Below are positions 37,443 to 38,507 of a stretch of 41,833 nt of DNA, in pieces. Origin of the DNA: a virus. Its lineage: Duplodnaviria > Caudoviricetes. A program made the translations under genes and the position numbers. The notes beneath the pieces were generated by a model, which was given only the letters and a program-made list of their open reading frames with translations, had not been told where the DNA came from and searched no databases. The stretch is taken from IMG/VR virus record IMGVR_UViG_3300017909_003587, positions 1 through 41,833 of that record. One strand, written 5' to 3'. Numbering within the stretch: position 1 is the first letter of the stretch; every line of letters begins with the position of its first letter.

Positions 37443-37483
37443 CAAAATGAAATTGTTACACAATTGTAACATTCCTGTAACAT

Positions 37484-37558
37484 TGGCGACCCCTAGGAGA
37501 TTCGAACTCCTGTTGCTGGGATGAAAACCCAGTGTCCTAACCACTAGACGAAGGGGTC
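37484..37558 (-). tRNA. trnE: tRNA-Glu (anticodon TTC) with encoded CCA
   Basis: GACCCCT acceptor pairs with AGGGGTC-G-CCA; D arm GTCT-AGTGGTT-AGGAC; anticodon arm CTGGG-TTTTCAT-CCCAG; T arm AGGAG-TTCGAAT-CTCCT. Confidence 0.97.
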
Positions 37559-37566
37559 GTAAGATT

Positions 37567-37755
37567 TGGTGGCATTTCAATGGCTTGGGTATTACCCCAA
37601 GTTCGACAGCGTGTCCTTCTAAGTCAGGCCTTACCTGAATTTTATCAAGGTCGGTAGCTAACGACCATAAAGAGTTTCGTTTACCATGATATCCCAATTG
37701 CTTATACAAAATTTCTATCACTTCTTTGTTAACCTTCTGTAATAATCTCAATGCC
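37567..37755 (-). ncRNA. Candidate ~189-nt structured RNA with tRNA-like acceptor stem and ACCA end
   Basis: 5' GGCAUU pairs with 3' AAUGCC-ACCA; internal hairpins GGUCG/CGACC, UCAGG/CCUGA and CUUGGG/CCCAAG; 8 nt upstream of tRNA-Glu. Confidence 0.55.
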
Positions 37756-37862
37756 ATATATCACGTCTTAATTGATTTTAACAACTATTACCAGGTATTT
37801 TCGTAGAGTTTCACAACAACCATCCATCTACAACTCTTCCTCAACTCCTGAATATAATAATC

Positions 37863-37895
37863 ATTATACCATAGTCGAGAGTAAATGTAAATAGC
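37863..37895 (-). promoter_or_regulatory. Sigma70-like promoter for the ncRNA/tRNA transcript
   Basis: GCTATTTACA-17 nt-TATAAT with TG extended -10. Confidence 0.82.
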
Positions 37896-37928: not shown

Positions 37929-38507
37929 TTATAATATAAGGCCAGTGTCTTCTAATACTATAAAGTTATTAATAACAGCCATAGTAATTAATGTATTAGG
38001 AAATATTAAGTTATCTTTTTCATATGTATGGATTATTAAATTACCCCATACTAACTTGAATAGTATTAATCTATCTAGGTGAGGATCTTTACCAACAATT
38101 GGATTTAATTCATAAATTCTTGGATCTTTTAAACCACGATTTGTAGTCCATACATCAAGAGCATTGATTGCCCAGAAATAATAAAGTTCTTTTTGAGGAT
38201 ATTTTTCTTTAAACTGTATAGATAGTGACAGTTTCTGATTTTCCTTTAACTTTGATGCTATCAACTTTTGTGAGTAATCCGCTTTTACACTGTCCAGCAC
38301 TGGTTGGGCCCAGCAACATTCGAACCCCATCATAATTGCGTGTTTGTCCTTCGAGTCTAGCACCAAGGTTGACGGCATCTCCAATGACGGAATAGTCAAA
38401 TCGAGACTCTGATCCCATGTTTCCGACAATGCAGTCCCCGGTATTAATACCAATCCCAACATCAATCCTAGGTAAACCTTGTTCTTCAAGTTCTTGTATA
38501 AGTTCAT
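37929..38507 (-). CDS. Putative exported/membrane protein overlapping the cyclase 3' end (start uncertain)
   Basis: C-terminal LDVWTT..GL....YELNP pattern (DUF5658-like). The N-terminus reads as a signal peptide, with GAGG 6 nt upstream of ATG 38507. Confidence 0.7.
   Translation of the reverse strand: MNLYKNLKNKVYLGLMLGLVLIPGTALSETWDQSLDLTIPSLEMPSTLVLDSKDKHAIMMGFECCWAQPVLDSVKADYSQKLIASKLKENQKLSLSIQFKEKYPQKELYYFWAINALDVWTTNRGLKDPRIYELNPIVGKDPHLDRLILFKLVWGNLIIHTYEKDNLIFPNTLITMAVINNFIVLEDTGLIL

Follow-up and report, generated by a model that had tools for sequence, protein, structure and literature searches.

What kind of element occupies the stretch directly ahead of the tRNA-Glu gene in this phage, where does it begin and end, and what might it do? 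The window, by which we mean the whole stretch of DNA analysed, spans 41,833 bases and is part of the genome of an uncultured T4-like phage. Its ssDNA-binding protein has 55–56% identity to the homologues of phage C48C1 and pelagiphage HTVC008M, and the sequencing runs that contain the element's stretch are mostly marine. On the minus strand, the element is flanked by a 192-codon ORF on one side and by a group of small genes on the other, several of them preceded by TTTACA-17-TATAAT promoters. The 192-codon ORF, upstream of the element, overlaps the final 299 bases of a CHASE2 cyclase gene in another frame (window 38209–38507). An earlier note on this DNA, made from the letters alone, had marked positions 37567–37755 as an unrecognised RNA of 189 nt with tRNA-like ends, co-transcribed with tRNA-Glu, and had set it beside the stable non-tRNA RNAs of T4 tRNA clusters and suggested that it might be a decoy for anticodon nucleases or another host factor.

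An uncatalogued RNA family of marine T4-like phages

Homologues were sought by pattern scans followed by a profile check. Of 181 profile hits, 152 were full length and represented 64 distinct sequences in 81 distinct contexts, while the other 29 were excluded as partial, unanchored or mis-anchored loci. The 64 full-length distinct homologues come from marine virus and metagenome contigs and fall into three types: A (window-like), B and C. True hits made up 6 of 43, 1 of 3, 15 of 32, 6 of 6 and 42 of 47 viral loci in the successive sets, and 92 of 108 metagenome loci by the profile check, with many cases in both of the same contig refetched. In the loosest viral pattern scan at least 17 of the 120 matches listed were true, and distant members are under-sampled. 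None of 11 GTDB pattern loci was true, plasmid records gave no match to the RNA, an exact 31-mer including ACCA was found in no viral contig, and blastn of three subtypes against cultured phages returned tRNA or chance hits only. A scan of genomes from the phylum of G071 matched 0 of 401, which shows little as it had no positive control.

At gathering and E-value thresholds, Rfam found only tRNAs on or beside the element (window and 10 loci at E up to 10, 7 loci at E up to 1), and a literature search returned no description of the double-pseudoknot RNA family. The accessible parts of 10.64898/2026.09.22.753630 and PMC9964418 do not cover it, and a fragment of the RNA may be among the 8,495 IMG/VR candidates of 29–151 nt described in the available part of PMC10690425. 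The RNA belongs to an uncatalogued structured family of marine T4-like phages, and its earlier designation as unrecognised stands: it is conserved, structured and non-coding, and has no Rfam match.

The RNA extends upstream of the proposed 5′ end

The terminal stem described earlier is present on the minus strand, where GGCAUU (37755–37750) pairs with AAUGCC (37576–37571), and the ACCA that follows ends at 37567, 8 nt ahead of tRNA-Glu(UUC) at 37558–37484. The 5′ end proposed at 37755 was not supported: pairing and conserved sequence carry on upstream for another 95 nt or so, with 39 of 94 positions invariant there versus 80 of 186 within the 189-nt span (35 homologues), and conservation stops just behind a promoter. 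The core of the RNA is 37849–37570 (minus strand), and the span of 189 nt amounts to the 3′ two-thirds of an RNA of about 290 nt. By itself the 189-mer folds modestly better than its shuffles (z −2.44; 2 of 200 as good), and folding of the plus strand gave nothing (z −0.70). We placed the predicted ends (Table 1) by the promoter for the start and by the expected RNase P cleavage at tRNA-Glu for the 3′ end; the RNA is likely transcribed early from its own promoter, and host RNase P likely frees it from tRNA-Glu by cutting at the tRNA 5′ end.

Contigs from RNA libraries cover part of the element in all six libraries compared; since the runs were chosen by the element's stretch and the data are contigs, they indicate presence in RNA libraries rather than ends, strand or level. 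A contig of X17 runs from 37574 to 37808 and so crosses 37755 by 53 nt. Contigs of X16 and X19 bridge the RNA and tRNA-Glu, which together with the placement of the two supports the earlier claim of co-transcription in this phage. Flanking genes are nearly uncovered in runs X15–X18, an observation that we discount, since these runs were selected by the stretch and X19 covers a flank. The X17 and X18 contigs end near 37808, at the loop of hairpin P2.

These data bear on the proposal of a 189-nt tRNA mimic that has an acceptor stem and CCA, is processed on either side by tRNA enzymes and serves as an anticodon-nuclease decoy. The stem (P5) is real and strongly covarying, and ACCA stands after it, ahead of tRNA-Glu, in the window and three L064-type contexts, but these are the only 4 of 81 contexts to have ACCA, and the closest homologues, L320 and L004, have AACA in its place. 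The supposed acceptor is an internal long-range helix: its 5′ base is internal, the 39 invariant upstream positions pair into the span, and the X17 contig continues past it. Moreover, U37756 pairs with A37570 in 32 of 35 sequences, which makes the stem one pair longer and the ‘discriminator’ A a paired base. A tRNA gene lies 12–21 nt downstream of the RNA in 20 of 81 contexts (Glu in 10 of type A, Asp in 2 of type B and 2 of type C, Arg in 6 of type C). The earlier statement that the RNA has no canonical T-loop, and is neither a normal tRNA nor a tmRNA, was borne out: there is no T-loop hairpin or conserved anticodon-like arm, the P9 loop is variable, ARAGORN and Rfam gave only tRNA-Glu in the window, and ARAGORN called no tmRNA in the window and 101 loci, and no conserved tag frame was seen. 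With CCA not conserved, no tRNA gene following in most contexts and no conserved anticodon-like arm, the tRNA-like ends and the decoy role lack support; we consider a tRNA mimic very unlikely.

Table 1. Features of the RNA and its surroundings in the window (P, helix).
Feature	Positions	Strand	Remarks
Sigma-70-type early promoter, TTTACA-17-TATAAT with TG extension	37863..37891	-	11/12 matches
Predicted whole RNA, ~290–298 nt	37559..37856	-	Profile match 37853–37562, E 2.6e-73, single in window
P1 5′ strand, partner 37679–37670	37842..37849	-	85.7% of cells paired; 2 pairs with double changes
P2 hairpin, 6-bp stem, 21-nt C-free loop	37805..37837	-	Six stem sequences, all fully paired, 63/63 copies
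UGGUUG in P2 loop, complement of CAACCA (initiator tRNA 3′ end)	37817..37822	-	63/63 loops
P3 5′ strand (P3.1 + P3.2), partner 37746–37732	37784..37796	-	97% of cells paired; 6 pairs with double changes
P4 hairpin, whose loop, AUUAAGACG, does not vary in types A and B	37760..37776	-	
P5 5′ strand, partner 37576–37570	37750..37756	-	98.8% of cells paired; 5/7 pairs with double changes
P6, conserved GAAA / GGRA internal loop, variable distal hairpin	37686..37721	-	98.3% of cells paired; 4/5 pairs with double changes
P7 hairpin; loop 37660–37657 pairs with 37610–37607 (pseudoknot 2), downstream of P8	37649..37666	-	
Invariant core: A-rich linker GAUAAAAU, P8 hairpin (37638–37624, loop UAAGG), linker GAAGGAC	37611..37648	-	63/63
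P9 hairpin, loop variable and expandable	37584..37601	-	
P5 3′ strand; CCA next in window, not conserved	37570..37576	-	
tRNA-Glu(UUC) gene with encoded CCA, directly downstream of RNA	37484..37558	-	
Insertion sites			After P3a: L145 (+95 nt) / L131; after P3.2b: L364; P9: L138, L272

A predicted two-pseudoknot fold is retained through compensatory changes

In the predicted fold the strands follow the order P1a, P2, P3a, P4, P5a, P3b, P6, P1b, P7 (whose loop is PKa), P8, PKb, P9 and P5b, and P5 crosses P1 and P3 to form pseudoknot 1. Across 35 type A and B sequences, 96.8% of the cells of the 47 pairs are paired and 25 pairs show double changes, against 32–43% of cells and 4–7 pairs in controls whose partners were slid by 1–3 columns. 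As the structure was derived from the same sequences, which gives it an advantage over slid versions, events were also counted on the tree: pair-state parsimony gave 63 double changes, spread across all ten helices counted, versus 2–5 in slid controls. P5 accounts for 13 of them on 11 branches, and the terminal stem, for which the earlier note had asked for conservation in related phages and a covariation test, is strongly covarying. For pseudoknot 2 we found a G-C/C-G swap (14:21), an A-U/G-C swap and 6 double changes on 6 branches. P1, the weakest helix, forms all 8 of its pairs in every one of the 11 type-C copies, where its sequence is different, and type C as a whole, with a quite different 5′ half, has the same helices in 11 of 11 copies.

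The alignment used, A3, comprises 35 of the 52 sequences of types A and B, and L131 was omitted from alignment A2. MAFFT shifts the register of P2 from one type to another, so this helix was counted separately. Clade effects overwhelmed an all-against-all scan of pairs, and per-column parsimony was ambiguous and was replaced by the pair-state version. Two candidate pairings were not kept. That of UAUUAC with the P9 loop was dropped, homologues pairing UAUUAC with 37791–37784, and a third pseudoknot, GUG/CAC, invariant in types A and B, went uncounted because it overlaps the covarying P4 and is lost in type C. The three clean hairpins of the earlier note were all found, at 37666–37649, 37638–37624 and 37601–37584, but the loop of the first is a pseudoknot strand.

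We put the probability that the RNA is a real structured noncoding RNA at about 0.95, and comparison of its homologues argues that the two-pseudoknot fold is retained through compensatory changes. Conservation of the region could alternatively be due to a 113-codon ORF (37757–37416) that passes through the span, its frame being open for 67–68 codons in the window clade (window, L019, L064 and L320). That frame, however, could be located in 9 sequences, 5 of which break it with stops; it also extends across the tRNA gene and has no PHROG or Pfam match, and substitutions follow the base pairs. An origin of the conservation in this ORF is hardly credible beside a structured RNA.

The near-invariant 3′ part of the fold invites a further reading, in which P7, pseudoknot 2, the A-rich linker and P8 would make up a catalytic or ligand pocket, the RNA being a new ribozyme or a trans-acting aptamer. 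Invariance is densest around pseudoknot 2, and by eye the P7 loop and A-rich linker resemble preQ1-I aptamers. But Rfam gave no ribozyme or riboswitch hit on the element in the window and 10 loci (E up to 10) or in 7 loci (E up to 1), and the invariance of the core is partly a selection effect, the search anchors having been placed within it; we rate such a pocket as quite unlikely.

Several observations concern the variability of the family. Insertions of about 20 to 95 nt (longer in L272) fall at three fixed sites and mark peripheral positions, and Rfam found no match on the inserted segments. One contig, L004, has a 94%-identical copy without the 59 nt that carry P1b, P7 and P8, the invariant core (junction at L004:2734–2735); either the copy has decayed or the assembly is wrong there. 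A fourth, more diverged subtype appears at the loose ends of runs X20, X4 and X6 at window 37746–37787; it retains UGGUUG, the P4 loop and a covaried P3, and was missed by the pattern anchors.

Genomic context suggests a free, accessory early product

A promoter lies 7–13 nt before P1 in 52 of the 75 contexts with enough flank (10 of 33 in type A, 30 of 30 in type B and 12 of 12 in type C), and in the remaining 23 the RNA is immediately preceded by the end of a gene or by a further structured stretch. In 18 of the 30 type-B contexts there is a terminator just downstream as well as the promoter, which suggests action in trans. Upstream and downstream neighbour proteins vary by clade, with none common to all, and the RNA is present as one copy per contig in 5 of 5 contigs. 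Relatives of the product of the 192-codon ORF are encoded in 17 viral loci, one of which has the RNA. At the two closest loci, L001 and L002, the same promoter leads directly into tRNA-Glu and the RNA is absent from the site; these two, L006 and L008 have no copy elsewhere on their contigs, which are 9–21% complete. We infer that the tRNA neighbour is one of several ways to finish the 3′ end, and that the RNA is a free, accessory early product.

Were the RNA instead a cis-acting leader or riboswitch for the downstream tRNA or gene, its position just after a promoter would fit, as would the small gene or tRNA that comes next in many copies. Such a role is nevertheless highly improbable: the 18 type-B copies stop at the terminator, many type-A copies precede a new promoter or trail a gene end, and the downstream genes are unrelated between clades.

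The surroundings of the RNA hold some further features. Short repeats, TGTTACA / TGTAACA, lie between tRNA-Glu and the following early promoter (window 37452–37483) and recur ahead of promoters in many related loci, possibly as an operator; the window has one match, which is not above chance. Downstream of the RNA in the L103 clade is a second gene-free stretch of about 110 nt with a 9-bp long-range closing helix (L103:1580–1690), possibly another ncRNA, and immediately upstream in L291 and L311 is a GC-rich, strongly folding stretch of about 200 nt (L291:500–750). Rfam searches of both stretches gave no match.

The P2 loop may grip the CCA ends of tRNAs

The most distinctive unpaired element of the RNA is the P2 loop, 21–24 nt long and nearly C-free, in which UGGUUG recurs in 63 of 63 copies under six different stems. 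Its exact complement, CAACCA, ends E. coli metZ (initiator tRNA). Within the loop, strict invariance is limited to G, UGG, G and G. The first motif is altered in 7 of 63 copies, and a second, intact UGGUUG is present in those 7; in 3 of 63, the window among them, the first motif as aligned is UGGAUG. UGGUAG, a variant found in 4 of the 63 loops, is complementary to the U72 form of initiator tRNA, and initiator-type tRNA genes end in CGCAA in 48 of 52 cases and in CGCTA in 4 of 52 (37 of 61 genomes had a match).

This complementarity leads us to speculate that the RNA possibly acts in trans, gripping the CCA ends of host tRNAs, initiator tRNA first, by means of the UGGUUG loop. NCCA, with A or G as the discriminator, would be read by UGGU in the manner of the T-box antiterminator bulge and loop 15 of RNase P, and the U and G that follow would pair with A72 and C71 of tRNA-fMet. 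The purpose, also speculative, could be to withhold uncharged or initiator tRNA from RelA or from defence enzymes whose target is the tRNA end.

An exact intramolecular complement of UGGUUG exists in only 1 of 63 copies; inside types A and B the motif has a wobble partner, CAAUUA, and a nested-only folding model leaves it unpaired 0.56 of the time on average. Composition-matched shuffled loops contain UGGUUG 7–16% of the time. Against the 6-nt tails of the 42 tRNAs of G080, a stand-in for the host, initiator tRNA shared the top rank with tRNA-Gln for 11 of 13 loop variants, compared with a first rank for 6–15% of shuffled loops; with 8-nt tails it was first for 8 of 13 variants, and with 5-nt and 11-nt tails never. 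The tRNA set of G004 is a poor stand-in, with no initiator-type gene found and a tRNA-Tyr that starts with C. As the motif was chosen post hoc and the loops share one ancestor, their agreement is near to a single observation, and we identified no second tRNA contact at the elbow or anticodon. Given the shuffle rate, the post hoc choice and the internal wobble partner, we offer a grip on tRNA CCA ends in trans through the UGGUUG loop as a tentative mechanism, suggested by base complementarity. Its fuller form, a trans-acting T-box counterpart in which a free-standing phage RNA would base-pair with the 3′ end of initiator (or uncharged) tRNA for early control of translation initiation, the stringent response or tRNA-attacking defences, is more doubtful.

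Level with the grip in our ranking, and held just as loosely, is the idea that the RNA works in trans as a sponge or scaffold that binds a host protein or complex (RNA polymerase, the ribosome or a defence enzyme), with UGGUUG unrelated to tRNA. The stand-alone early units accord with it, as do the many invariant unpaired purine-rich segments, which offer a possible binding surface, and the patchy presence of the RNA among close relatives, like that of accessory early genes; by eye only, UAAGG and GAAGGA are Shine-Dalgarno-like. Yet no partner protein is encoded adjacent to the RNA in all clades, and Rfam recognised no known protein-binding motif. After the tRNA grip and the protein scaffold we rank a multi-copy cage, taken up below, and then the ribozyme or aptamer.

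Comparison with known RNAs

The T-box riboswitch reads the NCCA end of tRNA with UGGN in an unpaired segment, and it acts in cis, with a specifier loop and an expression platform. Pairing of UGGN to a tRNA NCCA end is what the proposed grip would share with it, whereas the specifier loop, expression platform and cis role are not seen in the phage RNA, and Rfam gave no hit. Bacterial RNase P RNA is of similar size, its GGU pairs with tRNA RCC, and its P4 pseudoknot links the two ends by joining conserved regions I and V. Look-alike words (GAGGAAG, GGUAAAC and AGAUAAAAU) occur in the phage RNA, but it has no such P4 pseudoknot and no Rfam hit, and GAGGAAG is a segment of stem P2 that types B and C do not have; GAGGAAGAG, too, belongs to this local stem and is lost from those two types. 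No free-standing natural RNA other than RNase P and rRNA is known to bind tRNA CCA ends in trans, and a literature search for a phage RNA that does so found nothing.

T4 rnaC and rnaD (species 1 and 2) are non-tRNA RNAs of unknown function beside tRNA genes, according to the accessible parts of PMC3014915 and PMC9697503. They measure 139 and 119 nt (NC_000866.4 70908–71046 and 71053–71171), rnaC has at its 3′ end a T-arm, GGGUUCGAAUCCC, that is not seen in the RNA here, and both are reported as late, whereas the RNA here lies behind an early-type promoter and mostly has no tRNA neighbour. The family profile (nhmmer) had no hit at E up to 10 in the T4 tRNA region (70800–73200), and no homology to rnaC or rnaD was detectable. 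The manA and wcaG RNAs of marine T4-like cyanophages are structured 5′ UTR elements held in Rfam (PMC2864571, accessible part). The RNA here is likewise structured and from a marine T4-like phage, and no match to them was found.

ROOL and GOLLD, of 659 and over 800 nt, form cages and, like our RNA, are phage-encoded, carry multiple pseudoknots, have no established function and are often near tRNA genes, as given in the accessible part of 10.1101/2024.12.08.627333. The RNA here, at about 290 nt, differs from them in size and helix order and matches no Rfam model. By analogy it might form a homo-oligomer or cage, its invariant loops serving as contacts between copies, since it shares their lifestyle: phage-borne, pseudoknotted, often near tRNA genes and with variable inserts (L145 +95 nt, L364 and L138). 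However, it is under half their size and has no Rfam similarity to them, and the palindromic P7 loop of the window is not kept among homologues, where it covaries with its intramolecular partner; we regard a cage as unlikely. As a compact and well-resolved family, the RNA joins the short list of ornate phage RNAs, and its length of about 290 nt and defined ends make it easy to produce, probe and solve. The tRNA grip, if true, would tie phage ncRNAs to the contest between phage and host defences over tRNA.
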